Assembly: GCA_947175055.1 (NCBI GenBank)
Contig: CAMWLJ010000006.1
Location: 44-64,043 of the forward strand
Direction of reading: 5' to 3'
Source of the DNA: an uncultured Lachnospiraceae bacterium
GTDB lineage: Bacteria; Bacillota; Clostridia; Lachnospirales; Lachnospiraceae
DNA: 64,000 nucleotides
Of the stretch, positions 4,178 through 25,770 are shown in pieces; position 1 is the stretch's first letter; the number at the start of each line of letters is the position of its first letter. The notes beneath the pieces were generated by a model that had not been told where the DNA came from, did not search any database, and worked only from the letters and a program-made list of their open reading frames with translations. A program made the translations under genes and the position numbers.

Positions 4178-4226
4178 TCAGGACTACAGCCGGAATAGCC
4201 CTACAGCAGTCGCCTTTTTCTGATTC

Positions 4227-8314: not shown

Positions 8315-8352
8315 GGAGTTGAAAACGGCTTAAGACTGACTGTAGACGAAAG

Positions 8353-8793
8353 GTGGGAAAAGATTTTATGAAAGAACCGATCATGAGATTCCAGATATTT
8401 GCGGATGATTCGCAGGTCTCGAATATGGAGGGGCCGTATGGTGCGGTGACAATGATCCCCTTTACGGGCAGGGTGGAATCAGAACTCTTCACCGGTGAGA
8501 TCCTTCCGGGAGCGGTGGACGTACAGGTGGAAAATCCCGCGGGCAGCAGGAATATGTGCGCAAAATATATGTTTCATGGAAAAGACCGGGAAGGCAATGC
8601 CTGTCATCTCTTTGTAGAAAACAACGGTTACTTCTCGAAGGCAGACAGGGAGAATGCTTTCTTTCATGCCTGCCCAAGATTTATAACGGACAGTCCTGTG
8701 CTGGGCGCTTTTCTGTGTCAGGCGAGATTCCGTTCGGAAGTCCAGTCCGTGGAGGATGGGATCGAGATACGGATCTACGATGTATTGGAATAA
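8353..8793 (+). CDS. DUF3237-like protein
   Basis: MIPFTGRV...FTGEILPGAVDVQ...AKYM...VENNG...PRFITD pattern resembles DUF3237 beta-barrel proteins. Start uncertain (8353 or 8368). Confidence 0.6.
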   Translation: MGKDFMKEPIMRFQIFADDSQVSNMEGPYGAVTMIPFTGRVESELFTGEILPGAVDVQVENPAGSRNMCAKYMFHGKDREGNACHLFVENNGYFSKADRENAFFHACPRFITDSPVLGAFLCQARFRSEVQSVEDGIEIRIYDVLE

Positions 8794-8814
8794 GCCGCCC
8801 GCTAAAGGGGCGGC
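8794..8814. terminator. Hairpin between convergent genes
   Basis: GCCGCCC-GCTAAAG-GGGCGGC lies between the stops at 8793 (+) and 8820 (-). No clear U tract. Confidence 0.45.
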
Positions 8815-8819
8815 AATCC

Positions 8820-10760
8820 CTATGGCAGCACATTTCGCTTCAGGCTGCGGTAGGCCATTACGATATAGACGGCATAGATCATGAAAAACAGCATTAGCGT
8901 TATGCAGATGATGTTGAGTGGCCGGTAAAAGCCCTCCGTGACGCCCGGATCCGTGGCATTGCACAGGTTCAGGAGAAAAGGGATGCTGACAAACAGAGGC
9001 GGAATGGCAGGCATCGTGTAGTAGATCATAAACTGCAGGCGCAGCGCCCTGTGCATTTCCTGTCGGTCCATGCCCAGCTTCTTAAGCAGCAGGAACTGCC
9101 GCCTGTACCGGTCCGTCTCGGAAAGCTGCTGGATGGTCAGGATCGTGGCCGCAGTCATGATGAGGACCAGGGCCAGATAATAAAGCGGAAGGACCAGCAT
9201 TGCTGTCGAACTTGCATACTCTGCCTGCACCTGCGGCGCGGTGTAGAGCGTAATATGACTATAGAGCTCACGTTCATCCCGGATCCGGCACAGTGTGGCA
9301 TATTGTTCTTCGCTGACAGGCTCTTTCGTCATGGCAGCGTACAGATTGTGGCTGACAGGACGGGAGAGGACGGCTTCATCCGGCAGGATGAGGATAAAGT
9401 CCGTTCCATTGACATTCCAGAGCCGTTGATTGAGAGTCTCCGTATGGATACTGCCCGGCTGCAGCGTCGCTCCTCCAATGGCGATCGGCTGCGCGCAGGC
9501 CGCCACGGCGCCCTTTTGCCAAGGTACGCAGTGAATCAGATATTCACCGGGTTTCAGGGCGACGTCAGGGTATCCGCGCATGGAGCGCAGGGCGGCGTAG
9601 TCGCTGAACTTCATCCATGTATCATAAGGATAACAGGGATAATAGTCTGTATTTTCATTAAGATAGTCCGTGATATGGGCGTCTGGTCCCTGATAGATAC
9701 TGTACGAATGCGCGGCAGTGACGGGGACGGAAGATTCTATATATGCGGTCAGGTCACTGCAGTCCTGCGTCGGGGTCTCTGTACCGATGAAAATATCGAA
9801 ACAGGTTTCGGCAGTCTGGCGGCTCTCGAAGATGGCGCCAAAGATCAAGCCGGTGCCTTGGGAGATCAACACGGCGGTAAACAACAGTGCGATCGTGGCC
9901 ATCACGATCCCCATGGTATTTAACTTGGCGGACAGCGTGCGGAAGATGAGCAGAGTCTGTCCTGTATATTTGTGCCTGGGCCGTCTGTCAAACCAGGCCG
10001 GGACGCCGGAGGAGAAGCTTAGGAAGAAGCCGTACAGGAATACGATGATGCAGGCGGATCCCAGGATGCCGGTGGGCAGGCTTCTTGTAAGGAGCAGCAA
10101 TGTTCCGGTGATTCCGAAAATAACAGACACAGTAAAAGTTCTTATCCGCCGGCCGCTCTTCGCAAGGGCGGCATTTTCATTGAGACGGTCATAGTAGATC
10201 AGATCGTATATTTTCATGGAGCGGATCTTCCGGCGGCTTCTATACTGCGCGAACAGATAGATACATGTGAAGTAGACCAGTGTGAGGCCCACTGCCCTGA
10301 AGGAAAAGGTAAACGCAAAGGTGTAGGTGATGCCGAATAATGCCAAAAGAATAGCGCGCAGCGCCTGGAAGACCAGATTGCCGAGCAGAATGCCAAGCAG
10401 CAGAGCAAATACACCAACGATCAGATTTTCCAGGAAGAAAAGCCGTGCCACCTGTCTGTTTTCCAGTCCGATCAGGATATAGGTCCCGAATTCCCGGCTG
10501 CGCTTGGTGAACATGAAACTTGTGGTGTACTGCACCAGCCAGCCCATGATACAGACTACCACGATGCTGGCGAGAACGATCGTTACGGGGAGCGATCTCA
10601 TCAGCGTGGACAATTTCAGGATCTCCGGAGAGAAGATCAGGCCATTAAAGGCGTAAAGCAGGGCGGCCGTTATGATGACCGTGACGAAATAGACCAGGTA
10701 ATCACTGGTCTGACGTTTTGCGTTGCGCAGGGAGAGCTTAGATAACGTCACTGATATCAC
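8820..10760 (-). CDS. BceB-like (FtsX-domain) ABC permease
   Basis: LSLRNAKRQTSDYLVYF, KRSREFGTYILIG, about 10 TM segments with a large extracellular loop, LKKLGM near the C-terminus. Confidence 0.85.
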   Translation of the reverse strand: MISVTLSKLSLRNAKRQTSDYLVYFVTVIITAALLYAFNGLIFSPEILKLSTLMRSLPVTIVLASIVVVCIMGWLVQYTTSFMFTKRSREFGTYILIGLENRQVARLFFLENLIVGVFALLLGILLGNLVFQALRAILLALFGITYTFAFTFSFRAVGLTLVYFTCIYLFAQYRSRRKIRSMKIYDLIYYDRLNENAALAKSGRRIRTFTVSVIFGITGTLLLLTRSLPTGILGSACIIVFLYGFFLSFSSGVPAWFDRRPRHKYTGQTLLIFRTLSAKLNTMGIVMATIALLFTAVLISQGTGLIFGAIFESRQTAETCFDIFIGTETPTQDCSDLTAYIESSVPVTAAHSYSIYQGPDAHITDYLNENTDYYPCYPYDTWMKFSDYAALRSMRGYPDVALKPGEYLIHCVPWQKGAVAACAQPIAIGGATLQPGSIHTETLNQRLWNVNGTDFILILPDEAVLSRPVSHNLYAAMTKEPVSEEQYATLCRIRDERELYSHITLYTAPQVQAEYASSTAMLVLPLYYLALVLIMTAATILTIQQLSETDRYRRQFLLLKKLGMDRQEMHRALRLQFMIYYTMPAIPPLFVSIPFLLNLCNATDPGVTEGFYRPLNIICITLMLFFMIYAVYIVMAYRSLKRNVLP

Positions 10761-11496
10761 CTCCTAACAGAGCAAGCACATTAAGGATCTCATGATAGAA
10801 GACAGAGCGGTCTCGGCTTCCGCGGATCAATTCGTTGAAAAGGCGGCCGTCTTTGAGAAACAGGATACGGGAGGCATAACTGGCGCTGTAAGCGTCGTGT
10901 GTGACCATGAGGATGGTAGCGTGCATGGTCCGGTTCATCTGCGTCATGATCTCCAGTAGATTTTTGGACGCCTTGGAATCCAGTGCACCGGTGGGTTCGT
11001 CAGCCAGAAGCAGAGACTGACCTGCCACCATGGCGCGGGCGCAGGCTGCGCGCTGCTTCTGTCCGCCGGATACCTGATAAGGGAATTTGGGCAGGATATC
11101 GGTGATACCCAGTTTCATTGCCACATTCCGGACCTTATCCTGCACGGACGCAGGATCCGTGTGCGTCAAAGAGAGCGCGAGGCCGATGTTTTCTTCTATG
11201 GTCAGCGTATCGAGCAGATTGAAGTCCTGAAACACGAATCCCAGCTTCTCACGTCTGAAACGGGCCAGCTCGGCGGAAGAAAGGTCAGAGATGTCGATAC
11301 CGTCCAGACAGATCCGCCCGGCACTGATCGTGTCGATGGTAGAGATACAATTGAGCAGCGTTGTCTTTCCGCTGCCGGATGCGCCCATAATGGCGATGAA
11401 CTCACCGTCCTCCACGCGGAAACTGACTCTGTTCAGCGCTTTGGTGACGTTTACACCGTTACCGTAATACTTTTCGATATTTTCTACTTGCAGCAT
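10738..11496 (-). CDS. BceA-like ABC ATP-binding protein
   Basis: GASGSGKT, VSGGQKQR, LADEPTGALDS, MVTHD. Confidence 0.92.
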   Translation of the reverse strand: MLQVENIEKYYGNGVNVTKALNRVSFRVEDGEFIAIMGASGSGKTTLLNCISTIDTISAGRICLDGIDISDLSSAELARFRREKLGFVFQDFNLLDTLTIEENIGLALSLTHTDPASVQDKVRNVAMKLGITDILPKFPYQVSGGQKQRAACARAMVAGQSLLLADEPTGALDSKASKNLLEIMTQMNRTMHATILMVTHDAYSASYASRILFLKDGRLFNELIRGSRDRSVFYHEILNVLALLGGDISDVI

Positions 11497-11623
11497 GTGC
11501 TACCTCCTATTCTGATTGTAGTCTTTCGACTTCTTCTTTTCGTCTGTTCGGTTGCCGAAGGGAATTCGTTATCTCCCGTCGGTATGTCCAGTATAGAGAA
11601 ACAGCAAGCAGAAAGGTATCGAA

Positions 11624-12661
11624 TCAGTATGGATTTGTCTTACGGTTTTGTAAGGTTTCCGACAGCTGCTTAGCCGGAAAAGTGAGGGTCACGGTAGTGC
11701 CCTGTTGCTCCATGGAAGAAATCTGCAGATCGATTTCCAGCAAGGCTGCCAGTTTGCGGCACAGATAGAGTCCCATGCCGGTGGAACCTCCCCGCAGCCG
11801 CCCATTGCTGCCGGTAAATCCTCTGTCGAATACACGGGGCAGTTCATGAGCCGGAATGCCGATGCCGTTATCTGAGACAGTCAGCTGTACCTGCCTGCCG
11901 CATGGCGTGGCAGTCAGGAGGACGGAAGGAGAAGCGTTACTTCGATAGCGGGATGCATTCTGCAATAGCTGCCCGAGGATGAATACTGCCCATTTCTTGT
12001 CGGTGTAGACCGTAAAGTCCAGATTGCCGGTCTCGATCTTCATCTGACTTTGGATGAGTAGTGTCCGGTGATTCCCTACGGCCTGGGAAACGATGTCGGA
12101 CAGACTGGCCTGGCGGATGATACAGTCTTGCTCCGGGCTTTCGGCCCGCGCGTAGTAAAGAGCACGCTCTACGTGAGCCTCGATCTGTGAAAGCTCTGCG
12201 GAAAATTTACGGCGGCTGTCAGGATCCATGCGCCGGCAGGTGAGTTTGGCGGCAGTGATCGGTGTTTTGATCTCATGCACCCAGCTTTCAATGTATTCCC
12301 GGTATTCCTGCATGGAAGCCTGGGCATCCGAGACGGCGCCGATCATGGCCCTGCCGGAACTGCGCATCAGCGCAAAAAGCTTCTGTTCATAGACGGTATG
12401 GGGTGGCGGCGCACATTCGCCAAACAGGTATTTCTGATCCAATCCCTGCAGGAGTGCGGACAGCTCCGACAGCCGTTGTCGGCATTTGTGATATTCGGAT
12501 ATCTGTGTGACGGTAAAGATAAGAAGCAGAAAGAGGAGCAGAAGGGTGATCACGCCGGAGGAAGTACCGGTCATCCGCAGGAAGAATGCCGCTGCGGCCG
12601 TACAGCAGAGCTGCACCATGATCTTGCCCAGTCGATCTGATAGAAACTCGTATATTGTCAT
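11624..12661 (-). CDS. BceS-like intramembrane-sensing histidine kinase
   Basis: Two short N-terminal TMs, WVHEIKTP H-box, DNGIGI, FDRGFTG, GMGLYL. Confidence 0.9.
   Translation of the reverse strand: MTIYEFLSDRLGKIMVQLCCTAAAAFFLRMTGTSSGVITLLLLFLLLIFTVTQISEYHKCRQRLSELSALLQGLDQKYLFGECAPPPHTVYEQKLFALMRSSGRAMIGAVSDAQASMQEYREYIESWVHEIKTPITAAKLTCRRMDPDSRRKFSAELSQIEAHVERALYYARAESPEQDCIIRQASLSDIVSQAVGNHRTLLIQSQMKIETGNLDFTVYTDKKWAVFILGQLLQNASRYRSNASPSVLLTATPCGRQVQLTVSDNGIGIPAHELPRVFDRGFTGSNGRLRGGSTGMGLYLCRKLAALLEIDLQISSMEQQGTTVTLTFPAKQLSETLQNRKTNPY
11639..11654 (-). promoter_or_regulatory. Putative BceR-type response regulator box upstream of the ABC operon
   Basis: Minus strand reads CTTACA-AAAC-CGTAAG, an inverted repeat like the CTTACA-N4-TGTAAG boxes of BceR/GraR-type regulators. 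A TATACT -10 lies downstream on the minus strand at 11590-11595. Confidence 0.6.
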
Positions 12662-13323
12662 AGTTGATACCCCATTCCCCGCCGTGTGCGGATGCAGTCC
12701 GGCATTCCCAGATCTTTCAGTTTCGTGCGCAGCCTGGTGACGTTCACGCTCAGAGTGTTGTCGTCAATATATATCTGGTTTTCCCACAGCACATCGATCA
12801 GATCGGCGCGGGAGACAATCTCCCCGGCATGTGCCATCAGATGTGCCAGGATCTTCAGCTCGTTACGGGTAAGCTCTTCGCTGCGGCCATTGAGGGAGAC
12901 AGTGCCCTTCGTCAGACATAAACGCAGGCCGTTTACCGTGAGCACGTCGGCTTCCGATACGCCGCCGCTGCGGCGGAGTACTGCTTTGATTCGGGCCAAA
13001 AGAACGGGTACGTCATAGGGTTTGGTGATATAGTCATCGCCGCCCATACTTAAGCCACGGAATTCGTCTGTGGAGGAATCTCTGCTGGTGACGATGATGA
13101 TGGGTAGGGTAAAATTCTTGCGGATCTGGGCACACAGCGCCAGTCCGTCCCGCCCCGGAAGCCCTAAGTCGAGCAGGACAAGGTCGGGGGCACAGTCACG
13201 GATCTGTCCAGTCATATCTGTAAAGTCCGTGATGGAGACGACCCGGTAACCTTCGTTTTCCAGAAGAAGAGACAATTCCTCCCGGATCAACGGATCGTCC
13301 TCTATGATCATGATCTTCTGCAT
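12658..13323 (-). CDS. BceR-like OmpR-family response regulator
   Basis: IIEDD, LLDLGLP, DDYITKP, DDNTLSVNVTRLR, TRRGMGY. Start MQKI at 13323 behind GGAGG. Confidence 0.92.
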   Translation of the reverse strand: MQKIMIIEDDPLIREELSLLLENEGYRVVSITDFTDMTGQIRDCAPDLVLLDLGLPGRDGLALCAQIRKNFTLPIIIVTSRDSSTDEFRGLSMGGDDYITKPYDVPVLLARIKAVLRRSGGVSEADVLTVNGLRLCLTKGTVSLNGRSEELTRNELKILAHLMAHAGEIVSRADLIDVLWENQIYIDDNTLSVNVTRLRTKLKDLGMPDCIRTRRGMGYQL

Positions 13324-13595
13324 GGTCAACCTCCCTCCGTCTGCACCTATCCCGAATACACCTTGCCTGCATGGATATGGATGCCGCACATATATAGGTA
13401 TACCATTTTGCGATAGGAAAATCAATCGGTTATCGGCCTGAAACCTCGGTCACTAACTTTTTCTATTTGTAAGATTGCAGGGAGTACTGCTATAATAATA
13501 GTAGTAACACATGCAAGACCCATAGAATCACCGAATGAAATAACTAAGTGGAATCACGGAACGAAATAACAGAACAACGAAGGGAGTAAGAGCAG

Positions 13596-14936
13596 ATGAG
13601 TACAGTTGTCACGACCAGAAAAGGGAAGATCAGAGGATGTGCGGAAAACGGATGCCTTGTATTCAAAGGCATACCCTACGCAAAACCGCCGGTGGGCGAA
13701 CTTCGCTGGCGGGCACCCCAGGAGACGGAGAGCTGGGAGGGCACCTATGAGGCGGTGCGGTTTTCCGATAAGGCGGTACAGGGAGATCAGAACGTGGGAT
13801 TCTATGGCAAAGAATTCTATGCAGATCCGGCGTATGACGTGGGGATCAGTGAAGATTGTCTGTACCTGAATATCTGGGCGCCGGAAGAAGCGGTGAGGGA
13901 AGAAGCGAAGGCGGGACTGCCGGTGGCATTCTGGATCCACGGAGGCGCGTTTATGAGTGGGTACGGGAGTGAGCAGGAGTTTGACGGTGCGGCTTATGCA
14001 AAACGGGGTGTGATCCTTGTCACCATCAACTATCGCCTGAATGTCTACGGCTTTCTGGCGCATCCCTGGCTGAGCAGGGAGAATGATAACGGTGTATCCG
14101 GGAACTATGGCATATTGGATCAGATCGCCGCATTGAAATGGGTCTTCGAGAATATAGAGGCCTTCGGCGGTGACCCCGGCAATATCACGATCTTCGGTCA
14201 GTCGGCCGGTGCGATGAGCGTGCAGACGCTTCTGTCTTCGGAGCTGACCGGGAGTATGATCGCCAAGGCGATCCTGCAGAGCGGCGGAAGCTACGGGAAC
14301 GGCATCCACCGTGACATGCCTCTGCAGGAAGCGGAAGAATACGGTAAGAGATTTGCCGGTCTGGCAGGTGCCAAAGATCTGGATGAACTTCGGGCCATGT
14401 CCACTCAGGAACTGGAGAAACCCTTTGGACAGATGATGGAAGAAGCGTTTACGTCCGGCAAAGGCCTTTTCCTCGTTCCCAATATAGATGACTACGTGTT
14501 GAAACAGGGTTATAATCATACCATAGAGGACAAAAAGCTGAAACATATTTCTTATTTGATCGGCAGCACGAAGAACGATATCATGGTGACGAAGGAACAG
14601 CTGGAGGCAGGTGAGAAGGGAACCCTGTATGAGGGCTGCATGGCGTTCAGCCATAAGATGGAGCAGCTTTGGAACGAGCCTTCCTATGTCTACTACTTTT
14701 CCAGACAGATGCCGGGGGATGAAGAGGGCGCCTTCCATTCCGCGGAATTGTGGTATGTATTCGGCACCGTGAAGCGGTGTTGGAGGCCGCTGACGGAGGC
14801 GGATGAGCAGCTGAGTGAACGGATGCTGGATTACTGGACCAATTTTATGAAGAAAGGTGATCCCAACGGGGACGGCCTGCCGGAATGGCGGACGTGCAGC
14901 GAGAAAGATCCTTTTATCATGGAATTTGATGTGTAA
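13596..14936 (+). CDS. Type B carboxylesterase (para-nitrobenzyl esterase-like)
   Basis: FKGIPYAKPP, SEDCLYLNIW, WIHGGAF, FGQSAG (catalytic Ser), GAFHSAEL (catalytic His). Confidence 0.92.
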   Translation: MSTVVTTRKGKIRGCAENGCLVFKGIPYAKPPVGELRWRAPQETESWEGTYEAVRFSDKAVQGDQNVGFYGKEFYADPAYDVGISEDCLYLNIWAPEEAVREEAKAGLPVAFWIHGGAFMSGYGSEQEFDGAAYAKRGVILVTINYRLNVYGFLAHPWLSRENDNGVSGNYGILDQIAALKWVFENIEAFGGDPGNITIFGQSAGAMSVQTLLSSELTGSMIAKAILQSGGSYGNGIHRDMPLQEAEEYGKRFAGLAGAKDLDELRAMSTQELEKPFGQMMEEAFTSGKGLFLVPNIDDYVLKQGYNHTIEDKKLKHISYLIGSTKNDIMVTKEQLEAGEKGTLYEGCMAFSHKMEQLWNEPSYVYYFSRQMPGDEEGAFHSAELWYVFGTVKRCWRPLTEADEQLSERMLDYWTNFMKKGDPNGDGLPEWRTCSEKDPFIMEFDV

Positions 14937-15022
14937 GCAGATTCAGACAGAATTTATACAAAAGCAACGTAAGACGGAGATAGATCTGGCCGGAAATGAT
15001 CAGACGAAGGAGCAGAGGATAA

Positions 15023-15451
15023 ATGGCATATGAAGATTTCTATGAGTCAGCAATAAGGCATTGGATCGATGGAGGCATTCTGGAAGAGAATGAAGAATAT
15101 GATAATGCAGTCTGCATGCAGGGATTTGCAGCAGAATGTGCCTTGAAAAAAATTATGGAGAGAATATGTTCATCCAGTGACGTCAGAAGATACAGTCATT
15201 TTGGAGAAGTGCTTTTTCAGGATATCATTATGATGCTGACAGGTGATATGGGACTGACAATGATGATCGATCCGGCATGTGCGTTAAGATTATCTCAAAT
15301 AGTGCTGCCTGAAGTTTTGTTTCGAGATCATCCGGAAAGAAGATATTTCGGAGATGATAAATTCGTGAGGAAAGATGCTGAGGATTGTCGGAAGGCGGCG
15401 GGGTGTCTGATCAGAGAGCTGGCGCTTATGCGTTTGGATGGATATGTGTAA
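15023..15451 (+). CDS. HEPN-like small helical protein
   Basis: 142 aa. Pattern SAIRH..DG..L.....DNA....GFAAECALK, a central His (YSH), then PERRY and a terminal helix. This matches the E..LK / H / RY layout of stand-alone HEPN proteins. Confidence 0.65.
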   Translation: MAYEDFYESAIRHWIDGGILEENEEYDNAVCMQGFAAECALKKIMERICSSSDVRRYSHFGEVLFQDIIMMLTGDMGLTMMIDPACALRLSQIVLPEVLFRDHPERRYFGDDKFVRKDAEDCRKAAGCLIRELALMRLDGYV

Positions 15452-15463
15452 GGAGAATGTGAT

Positions 15464-16795
15464 ATGATAACATTTAATGATACCTTGAATGCTGCAGTGG
15501 CGTGTATACGTAAATGGAATACGGATATGCTTGTGAAAGAAGTTACATTGATCAGAGACGTATACGGCAAAGTGTCTTTACTGCTGGATAACACAGAGCC
15601 TGTAGATGAGTCTGACAAAGGGACTCTTTCATCTGTTTTAAGCGGTAATATGGGAGCATATTTCAGTGGGAGAGTTTATTGGAAAAAACCAGCGCATAGC
15701 CATAAAAGAATGGGAGAGCGGGAAAAGATCATGACTGATCTTATCGAGAGTGAGCGGTCTTTCTGGAAAGAAGAAGACAGTGTTAAATTCTATTTGTCTG
15801 AGCGGGCTATTGCAAAGAAGGCCTGGGTCTGCAGACGGCAGGATCCGGAATCAGTGTGGCCCTATGAGGAGGCAGAGAATGGTGCCAAAGTGATCACGTT
15901 TTACTCATTCAAGGGCGGCATGGGAAGGACGACAGCGTTAGCCGGAGTTGCTTTGTGTCTGGTAAAGCAGGGTAAAAATGTATTGATGGTAGATACAGAT
16001 ATTGAAGCTCCCGGGCTGGCAACATTGTTTTGTGACGAGGAAGCTGTGAAACGTGGGGTTTTGGACTATCTTATAGAACAGGAGATCGATCCGGGGATAA
16101 AGCTGACAGATTTCGTATCGGATGTGGTAGAGCCCTCCCTTTTGGATGAAGATGCTGGGAAATTATTCCTTATGTCTGCCGGAAAGGTAGATGAAAACTA
16201 TCTTCAAAAGCTGGCACGCATTGATTATCAGGACAATAGAGACGGGTATTTGCGAGAGGCGTTGAAAGGATTGCTGATCGCGGCGAGAGATAGTTATGAT
16301 ATAGATTATATTCTGGTGGATGCACGGGCAGGATTCCATGATATGGGTGGTATAGCGGTTGCACAGATTCCTCATGGTGTTGTACTGTTTGGCAATGACA
16401 GCAGACAATCCTGGGACGGGATCACACAGGTTCTGAGAACAATAGCACAAGGACATGAAGAAGATTTTCCTGTTATGATAGTGGATACGATGAGCCCTAA
16501 ACCGACGGCAGATGATTTTGTTGCAGCCAGGCAGCGTTTTATCCGTAAAGCGTATACGGTCTGTATGGAAAACTACTATGATGAAAGCAGTAAAGTGCCT
16601 GGTATAGAGGCGGAGGGTGAGATTCATTATCCGGAACTTATCCCGTTTAATGACGAACTTCTGCGGGGCATAGAGTTGTATTCAGACGAGAGTCCGGAGA
16701 GGAAACAGCGTGTGAAGGCTTATAAGAATATACTGACCGGAGAAAGTTACAGGAAAATTACAGAGAGGATCTGTGGCTGGTTTGGAGAGGATTGA
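15464..16795 (+). CDS. ParA/MinD-like ATPase with deviant KGGMGRT P-loop and N-terminal extension
   Basis: TFYSFKGGMGRTT, VDTDIEAPGL (DxD), YILVDARAG (Walker B). About 140 extra N-terminal residues containing IRDVYGK. Confidence 0.8.
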   Translation: MITFNDTLNAAVACIRKWNTDMLVKEVTLIRDVYGKVSLLLDNTEPVDESDKGTLSSVLSGNMGAYFSGRVYWKKPAHSHKRMGEREKIMTDLIESERSFWKEEDSVKFYLSERAIAKKAWVCRRQDPESVWPYEEAENGAKVITFYSFKGGMGRTTALAGVALCLVKQGKNVLMVDTDIEAPGLATLFCDEEAVKRGVLDYLIEQEIDPGIKLTDFVSDVVEPSLLDEDAGKLFLMSAGKVDENYLQKLARIDYQDNRDGYLREALKGLLIAARDSYDIDYILVDARAGFHDMGGIAVAQIPHGVVLFGNDSRQSWDGITQVLRTIAQGHEEDFPVMIVDTMSPKPTADDFVAARQRFIRKAYTVCMENYYDESSKVPGIEAEGEIHYPELIPFNDELLRGIELYSDESPERKQRVKAYKNILTGESYRKITERICGWFGED

Positions 16796-16797
16796 GC

Positions 16798-18306
16798 ATG
16801 GAGATTGAAGCAAGATATAGAATACTGGAAGGGATTTTCAATTGTGTACCTGAAAATGGTTCCGGAGAAGATGAAGAGAATCTATTACAAAACTTCCTGC
16901 CTCTGCGCAGTTATGCTAAATTGGCAGATCCTAAAAATTTCCTGATCACGGGAGGACGTGGTTCAGGAAAAACGGAATTATTCCGCATTTTGACATCCTG
17001 TGGAGGACTGCGCCATGTGATCAGTGAGAAAGACAGAAAGCGATATACCGGCTTGCGGGAACAGGAGTTTTTGACCGGATATATTGCAACCGGTTTGGGG
17101 GCAAAAGCGTTTCCGACCGCCAATTCCTGCGATGATCTGGTGAAGATTGAAAAACCGGATAATCTGACTTCTTTTTGGGGTGGATTGGTCTGTTCTGTGA
17201 TCTTAAGAAAGTTTAGAGAGGACCGGGAGTTTCGTGAATTGACTGATCATTATTTTGGTGCCGAAACCAGAAGGATTCTGGAGCAGGACAGCAACGAGGT
17301 GTCAAAATGGTGGAATGACCTGGATGCCAGAAAGGAAAAATGGGAGAGCTTTCTTGATCAGGCAGATACTGTCCTTGAAAAAAGAGATATACACATTTGC
17401 CTGGTATACGATGAATTAGATCGTATCTGTGGTAACTATGGGAACCTTTTTCTATTTATCAGAAGTTTGCTTGACTTCTGGTATCGTCATAATAGCCGCT
17501 ATACACATGTGAAAGCTAAAATTTTTCTGCGCAGTGATCTGTATAATGCGAAGGCGCTTCAGTTTGTGGATGCATCAAAGATGGGTGCGTACCGACTGGA
17601 ACTGAATTGGGATACCCATTCGCTCTATCGTCTGCTTGTCAAAAGGATGGCCAATGCAGGGATTGAGGAAATGGAGTTATATTTGAAAGAAATACCGGGA
17701 TTGCTGCAGACAGAAGCCGATGGAGCATTGGGGTATCTGCCGGGCAATTCAGAAGACGCATTTCGTCTGCTTATCAATAAAATGATAGGGCAATATATGG
17801 GGAAGAATGCGAAGAGGGGTATAAGTTATACCTGGGTACCCAACCACATTCAGGATGCAAACGGAGAGACAGCACCGAGGGCTTTCTTAAAGTGCTTTGC
17901 TTTTGCAGCAGAAGAGATGTTGAACCATAAGAGTGATGTATCGTTGTTGGAGGCAAACAGGATACTTTTACCGACCAGATTACAGGGGGCGGTGGCAAAA
18001 GTTTCGGCAGACAGAGTGCAAGAACTGACACAGGAAGAATATCAATGGCTGCAAAATCTGATCAGACGTTTGTACGGCAAAACGATGTTGATGGGATTGG
18101 ATGAATTCTTGCGTTATCTGGAGCCGGAAAACTGGCCGGAGGAAGAGCATGATAAGCTGCCTGGAAAGACAAATGCCGAAATTCTTGAAGTACTGGTTAC
18201 TTTAGGCATCGTAATGAGAACGGCAGATGAAAGAATCAATATTCCCGAAATATATCTACATGGGTTCGGATTAAAGCGGAAAGGCGGAATAAAGCGCCCG
18301 AAGTAA
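16798..18306 (+). CDS. P-loop NTPase (STAND/AAA-like) with probable C-terminal winged helix
   Basis: LITGGRGSGKT Walker A, VYDELDR Walker B, KIFLRSDL, APRAFL, C-terminal LVTLGIV...INIPEIY..GFGLKRKGG. ATG lies 2 nt after the upstream stop. Confidence 0.8.
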   Translation: MEIEARYRILEGIFNCVPENGSGEDEENLLQNFLPLRSYAKLADPKNFLITGGRGSGKTELFRILTSCGGLRHVISEKDRKRYTGLREQEFLTGYIATGLGAKAFPTANSCDDLVKIEKPDNLTSFWGGLVCSVILRKFREDREFRELTDHYFGAETRRILEQDSNEVSKWWNDLDARKEKWESFLDQADTVLEKRDIHICLVYDELDRICGNYGNLFLFIRSLLDFWYRHNSRYTHVKAKIFLRSDLYNAKALQFVDASKMGAYRLELNWDTHSLYRLLVKRMANAGIEEMELYLKEIPGLLQTEADGALGYLPGNSEDAFRLLINKMIGQYMGKNAKRGISYTWVPNHIQDANGETAPRAFLKCFAFAAEEMLNHKSDVSLLEANRILLPTRLQGAVAKVSADRVQELTQEEYQWLQNLIRRLYGKTMLMGLDEFLRYLEPENWPEEEHDKLPGKTNAEILEVLVTLGIVMRTADERINIPEIYLHGFGLKRKGGIKRPK

Positions 18307-18349
18307 CAGGCAAACAAAAGCGAAGTAACAGGCAAACAAAAGCGAAGTA
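18299..18349 (+). repeat. 22-bp tandem duplication
   Basis: CGAAGTAACAGGCAAACAAAAG twice, then a partial CGAAGTA, spanning the NTPase stop codon. Confidence 0.9.
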
Positions 18350-18383
18350 CAAACGAATGGAATATTATAAGGAAACAGGAGTA

Positions 18384-18470
18384 AAGGTTGAATAAATTCT
18401 CTGATGAGCAATTTAGTTCAACAAACTGAACAAGTTCAGTTAGAATTTGTGACGATTCGGAATGGAGGAG
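18384..18470 (+). repeat. Second, internally shortened copy of the multi-hairpin element
   Basis: 68 nt identical to 3584-3651, then it continues directly into TTCGGAATGGAGG, the conserved 3' end and RBS. Confidence 0.8.
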
Positions 18471-18473
18471 AAC

Positions 18474-19256
18474 ATGCAGAATTATTCGGGAGAAGCAGGG
18501 TTACAGTATCATTTACAGATCAGACCGGGGGATGTGGGGCGGTATGTGATCCTGCCGGGAGACCCCAAGCGGAGTGAGAAGATCGCCAGGCACTTTGAGG
18601 ATGCGAAGCTGGTGGCCGACAGCAGGGAGTTTGTTACTTACACGGGATATCTGGATGGGGAAAAGGTAAGCGTGACGTCTACCGGAATCGGAGGACCTTC
18701 CGCATCGATCGCCATGGAAGAGCTGGCGCTTAGCGGTGCGGACACTTTTATCCGTGTGGGCACCTGCGGCGGTATCGATCTGGATGTCAAGGGCGGCGAT
18801 ATCGTGGTTGCCACGGGGGCGGTGCGTATGGAAGGCACCAGCAGGGAATATGCGCCCATAGAATACCCGGCGGTGCCGGACTATGAGGTGACCAATGCGC
18901 TGGTGGAGTCCTGTCGGGAGTTGGGCTTACCCTGCCATGTAGGGGTGGTTCAGTGCAAAGATGCCTTTTACGGACAACATGAGCCGGAGCGGATGCCGGT
19001 GAGCTATGAACTGTTAAATAAGTGGGAGGCGTGGAAGCGCCTCGGCTGTAAAGCTTCCGAGATGGAGTCGGCGGCGCTGTTCATTGCGGCCAGCCATCTG
19101 AGAGTGCGGTGTGGTTCCAACTTCCTGGTAGTGGGGAATCAGGAGAGAAATGCCAAGGGGCTTTATAATCCGATCATACACGATACGGAGGCGGCCATTA
19201 CGGTGGCGGTGGGAGCACTGCGGAAACTGATCAGGGCGGATCGGGAGAAGAAGTGA
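18474..19256 (+). CDS. udp: Uridine phosphorylase
   Basis: [38 protein letters not shown]. Confidence 0.92.
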
Positions 19257-19325
19257 CAGCACCGGAAGCATAATTCGGGTAGATGCTACCAGATCAGCAG
19301 TAATATCATCAGGAGGATTGTTCAA

Positions 19326-20522
19326 ATGGCGGAAAGAAAGTATAAGAGAATTTTTACGATCGTGATCGATTCACTGGGAGTGGGTGCCCTGGCGGATGCC
19401 GCTTCCTATGGGGATGAGGGGACGGATACGCTGGGACATATTTCTCAGAGCGTGGAGGAATTTAAGATTCCCAATCTGCAGAAGATGGGTATGGCAAACC
19501 TGCATCCTTTGAAGCAGGTATCGCCGGTGGAGAAACCCTTAAGTTATTTTATGAAAATGCACGAGGCCAGTACCGGCAAGGATACCATGACGGGGCATTG
19601 GGAGATGATGGGACTTCATATCACAAAGCCTTTTCAGACGTTTACGGAAACGGGATTTCCGAAGGAACTGATTGATGAGCTGTCCAGACGGACCGGCCGT
19701 GTCATCATCGGCAACAAGAGTGCCAGCGGCACGGAGATTCTGGAGGAGCTGGCGGAGGAGGAGATCGCCACGGGCCATATGATCGTCTACACTTCTGCGG
19801 ATTCCGTACTGCAGATCTGCGGCAATGAGGAGACCTTCGGCCTGGAAGAATTGTACCGCTGCTGTGAGATCGCCAGAGAGCTTACCATGAAGGATGAGTG
19901 GAAGGTAGGTCGGGTGATCGCCAGACCTTACGTGGGAAAGAAGCGGGGCGAGTTTAAGCGCACCAGTAATCGTCACGATTACGCGCTGAAACCTTACGGC
20001 AGGACGGTGTTAAATGCCTTGAAGGAGGCAGGGCTGGATGTGATCTCGGTGGGCAAGATCTTTGATATCTTTGACGGCGAAGGTCTGACGGAATCCAATA
20101 AATCCAAAAGTTCCGTGCATGGCATGGAACAGGCGATCGAGATCGCGGGCAGGGATTTTGAAGGGTTATGTTTCGTGAACCTGGTGGATTTCGATGCCTT
20201 ATGGGGGCATCGGCGTGATGTCATAGGATATGCCAAGGAACTGGAGAAGTTTGATGTAAAGCTGGGAGAATTCCTGCCGCTGCTACATGAAGACGACTTG
20301 CTGATCATTACCGCAGATCACGGAAACGACCCGACCCACACGGGCACAGATCATACAAGAGAGAAGGTACCGTTCCTTGCGTATTCTCCGTCGATGAAGG
20401 GCAGCGGGAAGCTGGAGGACACCCAGACCTTTGCGGTAATCGGGGCCACCATAGCCGATAATTTCGGAATCGACATGCCGGAAGGGACGATCGGAACCTC
20501 CGTGCTGGAGAAATTACTATAA
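19326..20522 (+). CDS. deoB: Phosphopentomutase
   Basis: [55 protein letters not shown]. Confidence 0.96.
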
Positions 20523-20619
20523 GCAATCCCCGTTATGCACACAAGATCGGAGTTTTTGGCGCATTCACGAAGTCCGCAGTGTAATGCGTACTCCTGATTG
20601 ACAGGTTATTTCTACAGTA

Positions 20620-20669
20620 ATCAAAGACCCCACTGCAAGCAGCCACTTGGCTCGTTGCTCGCGGGAATA
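20620..20669 (-). repeat. 50-bp dispersed repeat, copy 1 (inverted relative to 33638-33687)
   Basis: 45/50 identity to the reverse complement of 33638-33687. Confidence 0.8.
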
Positions 20670-20699
20670 AAGAATCGATGGAATAAAGGAGAGAACATT

Positions 20700-21368
20700 A
20701 TGAACAAGAAAGAAATGTTAAAGACAGTGGATCATACGCTGCTCACGCAGACGGCTACCTGGGAGGAGATTCGCGGGATCCTGGATGACGGGATCAAATA
20801 TCAGACCGCATCCGCATGTATTCCGGCGGCCTATGTGAAGCAGGCGGCGGAGTATGTGGAAGGCAGGCTGCCGATCTGTACGGTGATCGGGTTCCCGAAC
20901 GGATACAGCACTACGGCGGTGAAGGTTTTTGAGACGAAAGATGCCATAGAAAACGGCGCGGAAGAGATCGACATGGTGATCAATATCGGCTGGGTGAAAG
21001 ACGGGAAATACAAGGAGATCGAGGACGAGATACGGCAGATTCATGAAGCCTGCGGGGGTAAGCTCTTGAAAGTCATTATCGAGACCTGTCTGCTCACCGA
21101 GGAGGAGAAGATCAGGATGTGTGAGACCGTTACCAGGGCAGGGGCCGATTATATCAAGACCTCTACGGGATTTTCCACTGCCGGAGCTACCTTCGCGGAT
21201 GTGGAACTGATGCGCGGACATGTAGGCAAGGAAGTGAAGGTGAAAGCCGCAGGTGGCATCGCGTCACTGGAAGATGCGGAGCGATTCATCGCTCTGGGCG
21301 CAGACAGATTGGGCACCAGCAGGATTATTAAGATCATCAAGCAGACGGATGACGGGGCAGGCTATTAA
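20700..21368 (+). CDS. deoC: Deoxyribose-phosphate aldolase
   Basis: [45 protein letters not shown]. Confidence 0.96.
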
Positions 21369-21417
21369 GACGGCTGCAGAGAGAAATGTGCGATGTCTCG
21401 GAACGGAGGGATATACA

Positions 21418-21831
21418 ATGACCAACGAAGAATTGATCCTGGAGGCGAAGAAAGCCAGGGAACATGCCTACACACCGTATTCTCATTTTCGGGTAGGCGC
21501 TGCGCTTGTGACTAAGAGCGGTAAAATATATCACGGCTGCAATATCGAAAACGCGGCCTACAGTCCCACAAACTGTGCGGAGCGGACGGCCTTTTTCCGG
21601 GCGGTTTACGAAGGGGAGCGGGAGTTTACGAAGATCGCAGTGGTGGGCGGCCCGGAGGGCAGCGATGCAGATGAACTATGTGCACCCTGCGGTGTCTGCC
21701 GGCAGGTCATGATGGAATTCTGCGATCCGGAAACCTTTCAGATCATTTTGGCGGACGGTAAGGGACGGTGCTTGCAGCGTACTTTAAAGGAAATGCTGCC
21801 GTTCGGGTTTGGGCCGGAGAATTTGGACTAA
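21418..21831 (+). CDS. cdd: Cytidine deaminase
   Basis: AYTPYSHFRVGAA, GCNIEN, CAERTA, PCGVCRQ. Confidence 0.96.
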   Translation: MTNEELILEAKKAREHAYTPYSHFRVGAALVTKSGKIYHGCNIENAAYSPTNCAERTAFFRAVYEGEREFTKIAVVGGPEGSDADELCAPCGVCRQVMMEFCDPETFQIILADGKGRCLQRTLKEMLPFGFGPENLD

Positions 21832-21875
21832 AACCGGAGTTTTCCGACATGACAATAAGTCGAGGAGGCTGCTAT

Positions 21876-22964
21876 ATGAAAACAAGATCCAAAAAGAAAA
21901 AGATTCTTTTTATTGTATTAGCTATCATCGTCGTATTACTGATCGCCGGAGATTGGGGATTGTCTGCGATGGTATATAACGAGAACTTTAACCGGCGTTT
22001 TGAGAGTTATGAACCGTATATGCTGTATGTGGAAGATTTTGACGGATTGCAGCGCACGAAATATGAGTTTGCCTCCGATAAGGGACAGAAACTGACAGGA
22101 TATATGTACAGTTTGGGAGAAGGGCAGCGCGGTATCATCGTAATGGCACATGGATTTGGCGGGGGAGGGCACAATTCTTACATGGACTGTGCGGATTATT
22201 TTGCCCGTCACGGTTACTATGTGTTTGCTTATGATGCTACGGGAAATGATGAAAGTGAAGGGGAAGGAATCGGCGGACTGCCGCAGGGGGCGATAGACCT
22301 TGACTATGCGATCACATTTGTGGAAGAAAGCGGGGAATTTCCGGATCTGCCAATTGCTTTATTTGGACACAGCTGGGGCGGTTACAGCGTCTGCAGTGTA
22401 CTTACATATCATCCCGAAGTGAAGGCGGTCATAGCGTGTTCTGGTTTCAACTCTTCCGTGAACCTGTTTGAATCAGAGGGGAAGAAACAGATAGGGGATG
22501 GTATCTATTTGATGTTGCCGTTTGTGAAGCTGCATGAGAGGATCAAATATGGCAAGTATGCCTCAAATACTGCGATGGACGGTTTTGCTGAGAGTGATGC
22601 CGCCGTTATGATCGTGCATAGCCTGGATGATGAGGTAGTTCCGGTCGAATACGGCTACGACATTTACCATGAAAAATACAAGGACGATCCCCGTTTCAGC
22701 TTCCTTCTTTTTGAGGATGCAGGACATAACTACTTCAATGGCGACGCTTATCGCGATGCGTTCAATGCGGAATTTGACAAATGGCTTGAAACATTGGATT
22801 ACGACTATGATGCTGCGGAGAACAAAGAGCGGTTTTCAGAGGATAAAGCAGATTATATATACAGAAATCTTGACAGAGAGAAATGGTGCAATTCATTAGA
22901 TTTGGAGTTATTTCAAGACTTTGTTGATTTTTATGATCAAAGTATGCATAGAGCAGATCATTAA
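21876..22964 (+). CDS. Membrane-anchored or secreted alpha/beta hydrolase
   Basis: Basic then hydrophobic N-terminus, MAHGFGGG, FGHSWGG nucleophile elbow, HSLDDEVV, GH. Confidence 0.85.
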   Translation: MKTRSKKKKILFIVLAIIVVLLIAGDWGLSAMVYNENFNRRFESYEPYMLYVEDFDGLQRTKYEFASDKGQKLTGYMYSLGEGQRGIIVMAHGFGGGGHNSYMDCADYFARHGYYVFAYDATGNDESEGEGIGGLPQGAIDLDYAITFVEESGEFPDLPIALFGHSWGGYSVCSVLTYHPEVKAVIACSGFNSSVNLFESEGKKQIGDGIYLMLPFVKLHERIKYGKYASNTAMDGFAESDAAVMIVHSLDDEVVPVEYGYDIYHEKYKDDPRFSFLLFEDAGHNYFNGDAYRDAFNAEFDKWLETLDYDYDAAENKERFSEDKADYIYRNLDREKWCNSLDLELFQDFVDFYDQSMHRADH

Positions 22965-23088
22965 GAGAGTACCGATCCGGGAACTCTTGCGAAATGGTAG
23001 TATCACATTTGGGAGGGCCATAAAGTCATATGACCACTTATGTGCAAGCACAACGCGGTCTATGACTTTACAGGCTTTCTTTCCGTTA

Positions 23089-23898
23089 TTATTTTATCTT
23101 TTCCGCGATCATAATGTCCATACAATGCTGATGCGGGATTCCGCCGCTATTGCAGTTGAAAATAATTTCTTCTGTCTTATGCAATTTCCAATCATGATAG
23201 AGCATAAAAAGTTCTCCGGAATTCCAGCGGAACCGGTTGGCATCCTTATCCGGCGGAACTTCCACAAACGGTTTGTCTACAAATACATTGATCGTGTGTA
23301 TGCCATTTATGTTTGTGTGCTCTTTCAGGTTTGTCGTAATTTCTTTCCGGATTTCCGGCTTGATAAAGTGAAATACTCCACTGCAAAAAATAATGTCATA
23401 GTATTCGGTTGCACGAAAATCAGTGATGTCGGCTTTAAAAAAGTCTACATAGGTATTACATTTTTCGGCAAGTCTCTTCCCCTTTTCTATTCCGGATTCG
23501 GACAGATCAAAAGCTGTTACGATATAACCGTTCCGAGCAAGAAAAACAGCGTCTTTCCCTTCTCCGCAGCCAATATCCAACACTTTTAACGATTTGACTG
23601 GCGGCCGCATTTTCATTATCTCATAGCATAAAGTGTTAGGGATTATCCCCCAATAGTAACCAGCTGTTTCATATCGCTTATCATAATCAGAAACTACAAA
23701 GGATTTATATCCCAAAAGGGAATCTATACTTGTATTCAGTACACTTGCGATCATAGGAAGCATTTCCGTTTCCGGATAATTTGTCCCGTTCTCCCATTTC
23801 GATACTGCCTGAAAAGAAACATTTAACTTATCTGCCAAAGTTTGCTGCGTATATCCTAAGGCCTTTCTTTTATTCATGATCACCGATCCAATATTCAT
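23089..23898 (-). CDS. XRE-family HTH fused to a class I SAM methyltransferase (TehB-like)
   Basis: RKALGYTQQTLADKLNVSFQAVSKWENG (HTH_3), then VLDIGCGEGKDAVFLARNG (SAM motif I). Confidence 0.85.
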   Translation of the reverse strand: MNIGSVIMNKRKALGYTQQTLADKLNVSFQAVSKWENGTNYPETEMLPMIASVLNTSIDSLLGYKSFVVSDYDKRYETAGYYWGIIPNTLCYEIMKMRPPVKSLKVLDIGCGEGKDAVFLARNGYIVTAFDLSESGIEKGKRLAEKCNTYVDFFKADITDFRATEYYDIIFCSGVFHFIKPEIRKEITTNLKEHTNINGIHTINVFVDKPFVEVPPDKDANRFRWNSGELFMLYHDWKLHKTEEIIFNCNSGGIPHQHCMDIMIAEKIK

Positions 23899-24265
23899 TG
23901 AAACACCCCCTGTCTTTGATTTTATTTTACCATTAAAAATTGAAAAAACCATAACCGTGTCGGTTAGTTGATCATATAAATTCAACTGGCAGTAGAAAAC
24001 TAAAATATGTGAATGGCAATTCGATCATGGTTTAGATACAAAACATACAGGGAGTTGCTGGAGGAATAGCAGAAAGTCGATCATTATAATTTTTTGTACT
24101 GTTCAATCGCAGCTGTCCATGATATTCTGAAAAGAGGAAGCAGAGGACTTCAGAAGCGCATTAAATGTGCTCGTGAGGCTTTGGAATGAACGTATAAATA
24201 TGATCGACCGGTTGATGGAATACTATAGGTGATCATAAAATAAAAGGAAAAATGGAGGATATGCT

Positions 24266-25372
24266 ATGGAGAACAGGCAACTGCGGGTCGGCGTGATCGG
24301 CTGCGGCGCGATCAGCGACATTTATCTGAAAAACATGATAGATGAATTCGACAACCTGGAGGTTGCGGCATGTGCGGCGGCTCATGTGGAGAATGCCGTG
24401 AAGAAGGCAGAGCAGTATAAGATCAGAGGCTGTACGGTGGAGGAACTGCTGGCGGATGATACGATCGATATGGTGGTCATCCTGACACCGGCGTCCACCC
24501 ATTATGAGCTGGCGAAGAAGGCACTGGAAGCCGGCAAGCATGTGTACACGGAGAAGACGATGACGATCGCCCCGGATACGGCGGCGGAACTGATAAAGCT
24601 GGCGGAGGAGAAGGGATTGTATCTGGGATCCGCACCGGACACTTTTCTGGGAGCTTCCTGGCAGACGGCCAGAAAGATGATCGATGAAGAGAGGCTGGGG
24701 GAGATCACATCCTTCCAGATCAGTGCAAACCGTGATCTGGACTTTCTGGCGAGTCTCTTCGGTTTCCTGCGGATGCCGGGCGGCGGGATCTGCTATGATT
24801 ACGGTGTCTATTATCTGACTACGCTGGTGAGCCTGCTGGGACCCGTGAAGCGTGTGGCGGCGTCTGTCAGGAACGGAAAGCCTGTCCGTGTGAACGTGGC
24901 ATCTCAGTCGCCGGAGTTTGGCCAGGAATTTTCTTATCCTAATGAGAGTCAGGTATTTGCTGTTGTGGAACTGGAGAACGGCGTTACGGGTAATTTTGCC
25001 TTAAACGGTGACTCGGTCCTCGCGGATCAGGCTATGTTTACCATTTACGGAACCAAGGGCATCTTGAAGCTGACCGATCCCAACCAGTTTGGCGGGAAGA
25101 ATACTTTTATGGCTAACAGCTATGATTTTGCCAACCAGCCAGCCTGGGAGGAGATCGAGAATGTATTCCCCTATGAGGAGAACAGCCGCGGTATAGGGCC
25201 GGCCGATATGGCTGACGCGATCCTTAGCGGCAGAAAGAACCGGGCGGATAAAGAGATGGCGTATCATGTGCTGGATGTGATCGACGCGATGATGAAGAGC
25301 AGTGACAGCGGGCGGTTCGAGGAAGTCAACTCGACGTGCGAGCGGCCGCTCTCGTTGACGGAGAAATTCTAG
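24266..25372 (+). CDS. Gfo/Idh/MocA oxidoreductase
   Basis: GVIGCGAIS, GKHVYTEK, GSAPDTFLG, GGGICYDYGVYYL. Confidence 0.9.
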   Translation: MENRQLRVGVIGCGAISDIYLKNMIDEFDNLEVAACAAAHVENAVKKAEQYKIRGCTVEELLADDTIDMVVILTPASTHYELAKKALEAGKHVYTEKTMTIAPDTAAELIKLAEEKGLYLGSAPDTFLGASWQTARKMIDEERLGEITSFQISANRDLDFLASLFGFLRMPGGGICYDYGVYYLTTLVSLLGPVKRVAASVRNGKPVRVNVASQSPEFGQEFSYPNESQVFAVVELENGVTGNFALNGDSVLADQAMFTIYGTKGILKLTDPNQFGGKNTFMANSYDFANQPAWEEIENVFPYEENSRGIGPADMADAILSGRKNRADKEMAYHVLDVIDAMMKSSDSGRFEEVNSTCERPLSLTEKF

Positions 25373-25422
25373 ATCTGAAACTATTAACCGTATAAAACCG
25401 AACATGCAGGAGGAAACAGGCC

Positions 25423-25725
25423 ATGGTAAAACATCTTATTTTGTGGAAGCTGAAGGATGAACTGACAGCGGAAGAAAAGCAGAAGATCAAGCAGGAGATC
25501 AAGACTGGGCTGGAGGGACTGCTTGGAAAGATTCCCGGCCTTGTGGAGATCAAGGTACAGATAGAAGGATTGGAGTCCTCCAATGCGGATCTGATGCTGG
25601 ATTCTGTCTTCACGGATGAGGAAGCCTTGAAAGGCTACAGTGTGCACCCTGCGCATGTGGAAGTGGCGGATACGAAGGTAAGGCCTTTCACGCAGATCAG
25701 GTTGTGCCTGGATTTTAACCAATAA
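25423..25725 (+). CDS. Dabb family (stress-responsive A/B barrel) protein
   Basis: MVKHLILWKLK...KIPGL...YSVHPAH...CLDF. Confidence 0.85.
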   Translation: MVKHLILWKLKDELTAEEKQKIKQEIKTGLEGLLGKIPGLVEIKVQIEGLESSNADLMLDSVFTDEEALKGYSVHPAHVEVADTKVRPFTQIRLCLDFNQ

Positions 25726-25770
25726 CAGGACGAAAGAAATTCCCAAACAATACAAGTTGGAGGAGATGAT

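Follow-up and report, generated by a model that had tools for sequence, protein, structure and literature searches.

The window analyzed in this study, a 64,000-nucleotide stretch of contig CAMWLJ010000006.1 (assembly GCA_947175055.1) from an uncultured Lachnospiraceae bacterium, contains a cassette of three genes encoding a HEPN-T-fold protein, a ParA/MinD ATPase with an additional N-terminal domain, and a second P-loop nucleoside triphosphatase (NTPase). The cassette is almost certainly a member of the family catalogued as PDC-M28 and published as HINPO, and a probability of roughly 50% is assigned to the complete mechanism proposed here, according to which a HEPN toxin is held under a two-step ATPase trigger. 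We infer that gene 3 would sense the invader, that the ParA domain would then change its state in an ATP-dependent manner, that the dead MNT-like domain would consequently let go of the HEPN protein, and that the freed HEPN protein would damage RNA, with the infected cell being arrested or killed. Since the system has already been catalogued under two names, the contribution of this work lies in the predicted toxin-clamp interface and in a Lachnospiraceae clade whose cassettes move and decay outside defence islands.

The cassette comprises the following features (positions refer to the window):

15023-15451, + strand: gene 1, 142 aa, HEPN-T-fold protein, PDC-M28A; PA-HEPN1 position in HINPO; likely effector
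15464-16795, + strand: gene 2, whole open reading frame (ORF), 443 aa
15464-15880, + strand: gene 2, N-terminal domain (residues 1-139), likely inactive pol-beta/MNT-like nucleotidyltransferase domain, predicted to bind HEPN
15881-16795, + strand: gene 2, ParA/MinD ATPase domain, KGGxGR[ST] variant, PDC-M28B; ConB2 type
16798-18306, + strand: gene 3, Sll1717-family, ORC/CDC6-like P-loop NTPase, PDC-M28C; putative sensor

As described in an initial sequence-only reading of the window, the three co-oriented ORFs are located between an esterase-like gene and udp and are separated by gaps of 12 nt and 2 nt. The product of gene 3 is 502 aa long when read from its ATG, and 504 aa when read from an in-frame TTG at position 16792.

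Family assignment of the cassette

All three proteins matched PADLOC profiles of a single candidate system, namely PDC-M28A for gene 1 (E-value 2.4e-13, residues 4-138), PDC-M28B for gene 2 (2.1e-59, residues 1-425), and PDC-M28C for gene 3 (1.5e-70). The matches cover nearly the full length of the models, and the genes are adjacent, co-oriented, and arranged in the order of the models. PDC systems represent predicted candidates that, according to the description by Payne et al. (bioRxiv 10.1101/2024.01.29.577857; PADLOC-DB 2.0), were picked for sitting inside BREX, DISARM, or type I restriction-modification (RM) loci. The same triad fits HINPO, which is described in the main text of Li, Burroughs, and Aravind (2026, bioRxiv 10.64898/2026.10.19.760177) as a HEPN gene accompanied by a ParA whose N-terminus is an inactive, fast-evolving domain of the pol-beta nucleotidyltransferase type and by an ORC-CDC6/STAND ATPase that is at times fused to ParA. 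The HINPO section of this preprint is purely computational, and its main text makes no mention of PDC. Because the same triad fits both descriptions, PDC-M28 and HINPO appear to denote one system. Among the full texts searched, the terms PDC-M28, KGGVGR, Sll1717, and SCO4402 occurred in none, and HINPO in one relevant paper; the names PDC-M28 and HINPO, or the NCBI labels KGGVGR and Sll1717, were linked in none of them. ParA is not mentioned in the consulted passages of the BREX paper PMC12839542.

The sequence-only reading had regarded the combination as an undescribed system, which does not hold in view of the PADLOC and HINPO descriptions. The two protein families that it had named for genes 2 and 3 proved correct, both scoring above their cut-offs: gene 2 belongs to the NCBIfam family AAA_KGGVGR (NF047398; 178.7 bits vs. 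a cut-off of 90) and gene 3 to ATPase_Sll1717 (NF047389; 107.8 bits vs. a cut-off of 75).

HEPN-T fold of gene 1

The AlphaFold2 model of gene 1 reached a predicted local distance difference test (pLDDT) value of 87.5, and its five best structural matches were all HEPN proteins (Z-scores of 13.9, 13.2, 12.6, 12.3, and 12.2; root mean square deviation (rmsd) of 2.5-3.5 over 110-122 residues). A clearly unrelated protein came up first at Z 8.2. Foldseek placed the same HEPN proteins first, none of them below an E-value of 0.001. The HEPN assignment proposed from the sequence was hence upheld and could be specified as a HEPN-T fold. It becomes visible only through relatives and fold: the Pfam HEPN family PF05168 matched 33 of 56 gene 1 relatives at E ≤ 0.1, while the gene 1 sequence itself had no match among the HEPN models of NCBIfam and Pfam. 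Searching solved structures by sequence with the HEPN profile yielded nothing useful.

All motifs previously pointed out in gene 1 (RH..DG, GFAAECALK, YSH, and HPERRY) were located. In an alignment of 102 diverse gene 1 sequences, E38, K42, and R107 are invariant, and H59 (99/102), Y108 (100/102), and R12 (98/102) are nearly so. For AF0298-like HEPN-T proteins and AbiV, the published description gives a pattern consisting of Ex3[KR], a motif arginine without its histidine, and an alternative histidine, located in the insert that separates helix 2 from helix 3, as part of a proposed active site. The same elements were found in gene 1, represented by ExxxK (E38 and K42), R107, and H59, the last being placed in the helix 2-3 insert by the structural model. 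Judging from these residues and from the modelled fold, it is likely that gene 1 acts as a ribonuclease (RNase) via E38, K42, H59, and R107.

N-terminal domain of gene 2 and its predicted contact with gene 1

For residues 1-139 of gene 2, the AlphaFold2 model (pLDDT 82) retrieved pol-beta-type nucleotidyltransferases as six of the seven top structural matches (Z 6.1-7.0, covering 85-102 residues). The best among them were the MNT antitoxins 5yep_A and 1wot (Z 7.0, rmsd 2.5-2.8, 85-88 aligned residues), besides 8xeh_E (6.5) and 1no5_B (6.1), and the top Foldseek match was the MNT 7aer_A (E-value 0.1). Sequence searches of solved structures with this domain gave nothing useful. A BolA-like identity of the domain was considered and rejected, as it was seen in one of 52 rows and ranked behind MNT in the fold search. 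An MNT-like nucleotidyltransferase fold is thus assigned with moderate confidence on the basis of the model, in agreement with the HINPO preprint. The earlier statement that no nucleotidyltransferase antitoxin is adjacent to the HEPN gene is therefore likely wrong, such a domain probably being fused to the N-terminus of gene 2.

Active MNTs are characterized by the motif GSx10DxD, as stated in the parts of PMC11586414 consulted. This motif is absent from the N-terminal domain of gene 2, which lacks any GS dipeptide, and a loose GSx8-12[DE]x[DE] pattern was found in only 6 of 52 rows of the domain alignment. As deduced from its sequence, the MNT-like domain is most likely catalytically dead.

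The complex predicted between gene 1 and this domain obtained a score of 0.61, compared to 0.00 for the best control; in the benchmark of this score, 116 of 157 solved complexes and 2 of 215 mismatched pairs came up to that value. The complex runs share at least 80% of their contacts, and the pLDDT of the partner is at least 85. In the model, an R-D-V-Y-G hairpin, the helix spanning residues 85-97, and R114 lie against the last helix of HEPN and its residues L138-D139-G140, with residues 8-15 of helix 1 close by. The closest contacts pair conserved residues on both sides, namely D32 (47/52) and R114 (49/52) with D139 (80/102) and G140 (78/102) of HEPN. The MNT-like domain is accordingly predicted to bind the C-terminal helix of HEPN and its conserved LDG tail.

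These contacts bear on the model put forward for HINPO in section 22 and the discussion of the preprint by Li, Burroughs, and Aravind, in which gene 3 recognizes invader DNA and guides ParA multimers that, as the main effector, obstruct this DNA physically, the dead domain senses nucleotides or nucleic-acid fragments, and HEPN serves as a backup effector. The conserved residues K118, K119, and W121 lie outside the listed HEPN interface and could bind such a ligand. Furthermore, the N-terminal domain evolves faster than the ParA core (mean identity of 49% vs. 71%; ratio of nonsynonymous to synonymous substitution rates (dN/dS) of 0.30 vs. 0.07), as a sensor might. However, D32 and R114, the most conserved residues of the domain, are predicted to point towards the HEPN tail, and 45 of the 48 evaluable loci bearing gene 3 have retained HEPN, which is a tight association for a dispensable backup. 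This model is considered rather unlikely, although it is compatible with a clamp acting on HEPN.

ParA domain of gene 2 and NTPase of gene 3

The motif KGGMGRTT is located at residues 150-157 of gene 2, as noted before. The motif types SFKGGMGRTT and DxD.EAPG are present in all 43 aligned gene 2 sequences (DTDIEAPG in this copy). Arginine in place of the Walker A lysine, together with a PG motif after sensor-1, marks the ConB2 immune ParA branch in the text of Li, Burroughs, and Aravind. The deviant Walker A motif emphasized in the sequence-only reading is therefore real but not peculiar to gene 2, being the signature of the whole ConB2 branch.

Gene 3 carries GGRGSGKT at residues 52-59 and DELD at residues 205-208, the two motifs quoted in the sequence-only reading. 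The Walker A residues G52, R54, G55, G57, and K58 and the acidic residues D205 and D208 are invariant in all 33 sequences compared, as are R245, D247, and P360-R361. Pfam PF24389 (ORC-CDC6-like) was matched with 30.6 bits (cut-off 27) in the P-loop region only (residues 26-70), and the Atlas neighbours of the protein are Sll1717, ORC-CDC6-like, and STAND clusters at 0.96-0.99. For residues 395-502, the proposed winged-helix end, weak Atlas feature scores of 0.75-0.77 to ORC-CDC6-like clusters were obtained, and sequence searches of solved structures with gene 3 found no relative beyond the P-loop. By analogy to other members of the ORC/CDC6-STAND clade, gene 3 may function as the sensor of the system. 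ParA and gene 3 are fused in five loci (L057, L062, L063, L123, and L133), as the HINPO preprint states for the family.

Distribution, mobility, and loss of the cassette

To evaluate the co-occurrence of the three genes, 66 loci were fetched via gene 2 (redundant records included), 14 of which end at contig ends and 52 of which are evaluable. The complete triad was present in 45 of the 52; among the other seven, four have a KGGVGR protein that lacks both partners, and three have gene 3 but no HEPN match. Among 29 loci fetched via gene 3, the triad was complete in 20, cut by contig ends in 3, and reduced to truncated remnants in 6, with at least 8 of the 29 having lost sequence by truncation or internal deletion at a distance from contig ends. 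The recurrence of the triad elsewhere, on which the sequence-only reading depended, was thereby confirmed, and representatives were found in Bacillota, Cyanobacteria, and Proteobacteria. The distribution is patchy, as had also been presumed: the gene 3 query was found in 1 of 36 genomes of the same genus, and the PDC-M28B query in 6 of 400 genomes of the phylum.

The cassette occupies the same site as in the window in loci L001 and L002. In genome G024 (locus L054, G024:C18, 12000-12085), a deletion of approximately 3.3 kb joins the esterase gene to udp and leaves no more of the cassette than the final 24 codons of gene 3; a distant, fused copy is encoded elsewhere in this genome (L057). An interpretation of the G024 locus as the empty site before insertion was rejected because these last 24 codons are retained, and no clean empty site was found among the loci examined. 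Both deletion breakpoints share a 9-nt near-direct repeat in L001, which suggests that the loss was microhomology-mediated.

Seven of the 13 plasmid records in which gene 2 had a match were examined, and all seven have HEPN, ParA, and gene 3-like parts. Two of these copies reside inside BREX-2 between pglX and pglZ, two are located beside restriction-subunit genes, and three beside tyrosine integrases. A gene 3 match was found in none of 50,697 phage records. Among five viral contigs, one bears the system (IMG/VR contig L123, 5204-8535, HEPN and a 945-aa ParA-gene 3 fusion), which may indicate carriage by a prophage or mobile element.

Several further observations concern the chromosomal surroundings. 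The loci L003 to L097 occupy many unrelated sites (fliW-secA, secY, carB, flagellin, pfk, and polC); at most of them, no mobility gene lies within three ORFs. A gene of the GrpB family, which has a nucleotidyltransferase-like fold, lies at most two ORFs from the cassette in L095 (10596-11162), L096 (4418-4984), and L097 (4496-5062) and may be there by chance among kin. Locus L011 contains a separate, second ParA-family gene (4205-5152) two ORFs upstream of the cassette.

Weighing of the proposed mechanism

The defence-type reading of the cassette was judged right, and abortive infection, which the sequence-only reading had considered probable, would be its putative outcome. Several results nevertheless weigh against the held-toxin mechanism. 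As the sequence-only reading had cautioned, gene 1 lacks a canonical Rx4-6H motif, RRYSH being non-canonical, and a histidine at +5 to +7 from R107 occurs in only 13 of 102 sequences; R107 is the conserved arginine and His59 the alternative HEPN-T histidine. The HEPN domain of sacsin, a close structural relative of gene 1 (Z 12.3), is described as RNA-binding in the literature consulted, and it is possible that gene 1 acts by non-catalytic RNA binding. Regarding the N-terminal domain of gene 2, KH-like and transporter C-terminal folds follow within 1.1 Z of the nucleotidyltransferase matches, no Foldseek match falls below an E-value of 0.001, and a Pfam nucleotidyltransferase family was detected in none of 52 members. 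HEPN-MNT complexes have already been solved, so the complex score may stem from likeness to solved pairs; the binding mode published for them in PMC11586414, an MNT helix on the first and last HEPN helices, is similar to the predicted interface. The HEPN gene is first in the operon, opposite to most MNT-HEPN pairs. Experiments on PDC-M28 or HINPO were not found in the literature searched, with subscription papers and bioRxiv supplements outside its reach.

The genomic neighbourhood points in the same direction. A neighbour scan based on a simple ORF finder took in 150 of the 178 ORFs and 33 of the 36 loci picked for it, mostly from Lachnospiraceae, and provides counts only, with no background set. 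RM neighbours were encountered at 3 of the 33 loci, and integrase or insertion sequence genes within three ORFs at 5 of the 33. Most Lachnospiraceae copies stand alone among housekeeping genes, at many different sites. The association with defence islands is accordingly weak in the Lachnospiraceae clade.

Such solitary copies, together with the several distant ones on plasmids, would be in line with a three-part toxin-antitoxin or addiction module serving stress dormancy or self-maintenance, perhaps with a non-catalytic, RNA-binding HEPN and with no anti-phage role. A HEPN-T protein combined with an MNT-like domain is built like a HEPN-MNT toxin-antitoxin pair, and it has been suggested that the HEPN proteins of such pairs can be toxic without catalysis. 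However, an addiction module ought to resist loss, yet decay affects at least 8 of the 29 gene 3 loci and the cassette was deleted in G024; moreover, two copies are nested within BREX-2, and two conserved ATPases exceed the needs of a simple pair. The module is therefore regarded as an improbable explanation.

Locus and sequence composition

The cassette is flanked by two genes outside the system:

13596-14936, + strand: esterase-like ORF, 446 aa, with weak lipase/esterase NCBIfam matches below the cut-offs
18462-19256, + strand: udp, uridine phosphorylase (TIGR01718, 315 bits, cut-off 280)

The esterase-like neighbour was also found in L001 and G024. A single contig covers the region from the esterase gene through the cassette end (13545-18410) in the mouse-gut runs X3 and X15; since contigs of other mouse-gut runs span this junction, the locus is real and no assembly artefact. 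The cassette is compositionally foreign to its flanks, because its guanine-plus-cytosine (GC) content of 0.43-0.45 and its GC content at third codon positions (GC3) of 0.39-0.45 are below those of the esterase gene, udp, and deoB (GC 0.52-0.57, GC3 0.65-0.67). Comparison to the sister locus L001 indicated purifying selection on every part of the cassette (dN/dS 0.06-0.30). In the same comparison, the synonymous divergence (dS) was smaller in the cassette (0.22-0.37) than in the esterase gene and udp (0.63-0.65), which may mean that the two lineages exchanged the cassette at a later date, or only that codon use differs.

A housekeeping role of the three genes, in DNA partition, in division positioning, or in nucleoside salvage together with udp-deoB-deoC, is suggested by the ParA/MinD fold of gene 2 and by the orientation shared with that operon. 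However, all ParA/MinD partition equivalogs scored far below their cut-offs for gene 2, its Walker A motif is, unlike in ParABS and MinCDE systems, the arginine variant of KGGxGK[ST], and neither parB nor minC/minE was present among the neighbouring ORFs, as had been reported from the sequence. In addition, presence in 1 of 36 same-genus genomes, many unrelated neighbourhoods, and a GC content below that of the flanks stand against it, and this reading is largely refuted and very improbable.

The surrounding non-coding sequence showed several further peculiarities. Directly upstream of udp, a dispersed repeat of approximately 85 bp (18377-18470) has 38 matches in its own genome at E ≤ 1e-10, 22 of them at least 60 bp long; it folds as two hairpins (z -1.7), has no Rfam match, is missing from the corresponding spacer in both L001 and G024, and is possibly a small mobile or REP-like element. 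A second high-copy repeat (~20600-20672) between deoB and deoC showed up in four runs as a spike in depth with loose ends. A 22-bp tandem duplication (18299-18350) lies across the end of gene 3; one of its copies is missing from contigs of four other runs, and the protein end is unchanged. An Rfam search of positions 8000-26000 gave no match, and promoter-like sites occurred at chance level (9 vs. 6.6 expected). In two of the four RNA-labelled runs containing the stretch, the depth was flat and DNA-like and is therefore uninformative on transcription.

Comparison to known systems

The cassette shares with HINPO the upstream HEPN gene, placed here as PA-HEPN1 by operon position and fold, the ParA with Walker A arginine, PG motif, and a fused N-terminal inactive pol-beta domain (the last with moderate fold support), and the downstream ORC-CDC6/STAND-type ATPase with occasional fusion to ParA. 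In contrast to the main text of the preprint, which stresses enrichment in multicellular bacteria and suggests a nucleotide-sensing role for the dead domain, the copy in the window stems from a gut Lachnospiraceae clade, and its dead domain is predicted by the complex model to bind HEPN. With PDC-M28, it shares the full make-up, A, B, and C in order, and the BREX-embedded relatives; unlike the embedded copies, it is not located inside another defence system.

HEPN-MNT type VII toxin-antitoxin pairs (Shewanella 5YEP and Legionella 8XEH; PMC11586414) similarly combine a HEPN fold with an MNT-like fold, and mutual binding is predicted here too. As far as these pairs are described there, the cassette differs from them by its ParA fusion, the third ATPase gene, a HEPN-T protein without Rx4-6H, and the HEPN gene in first position; its MNT-like domain, without GSx10DxD, likely cannot AMPylate the toxin. 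The dyads of MAE_18760-family HEPN and ParA/Soj (Anantharaman et al. 2013, PMC3710099) also couple a HEPN toxin to a ParA-like ATPase, which was proposed as antitoxin or switch. In the passages describing them, however, the dyad HEPN keeps Rx4-6H, the system consists of two genes, and neither an MNT-like domain nor an ORC/CDC6-like partner is described.

Implications

Taken beyond the held toxin itself, HINPO may tentatively be viewed as a HEPN-MNT pair domesticated for immunity, a proposal that we hold at somewhat less than even odds. In such a pair, the antitoxin chemistry would have been lost, the old active-site hairpin would clamp the LDG tail, and two stacked ATPases would decide on the release of a HEPN-T RNase cutting via a non-canonical site formed by His59 and Arg107. 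The copy in the window, which is intact and comes from a clade of gut Lachnospiraceae, belongs to a family named twice, and it leads to a specific claim, namely that the dead domain would inhibit the toxin via D32 and R114 on the LDG tail. If true, the domesticated-pair reading would revise the published idea of a nucleotide sensor and would allow the alternative active site of HEPN-T proteins to be assayed for the first time in phage defence, and the clamp would show a route from a simple toxin-antitoxin pair to an ATPase-gated immune system.

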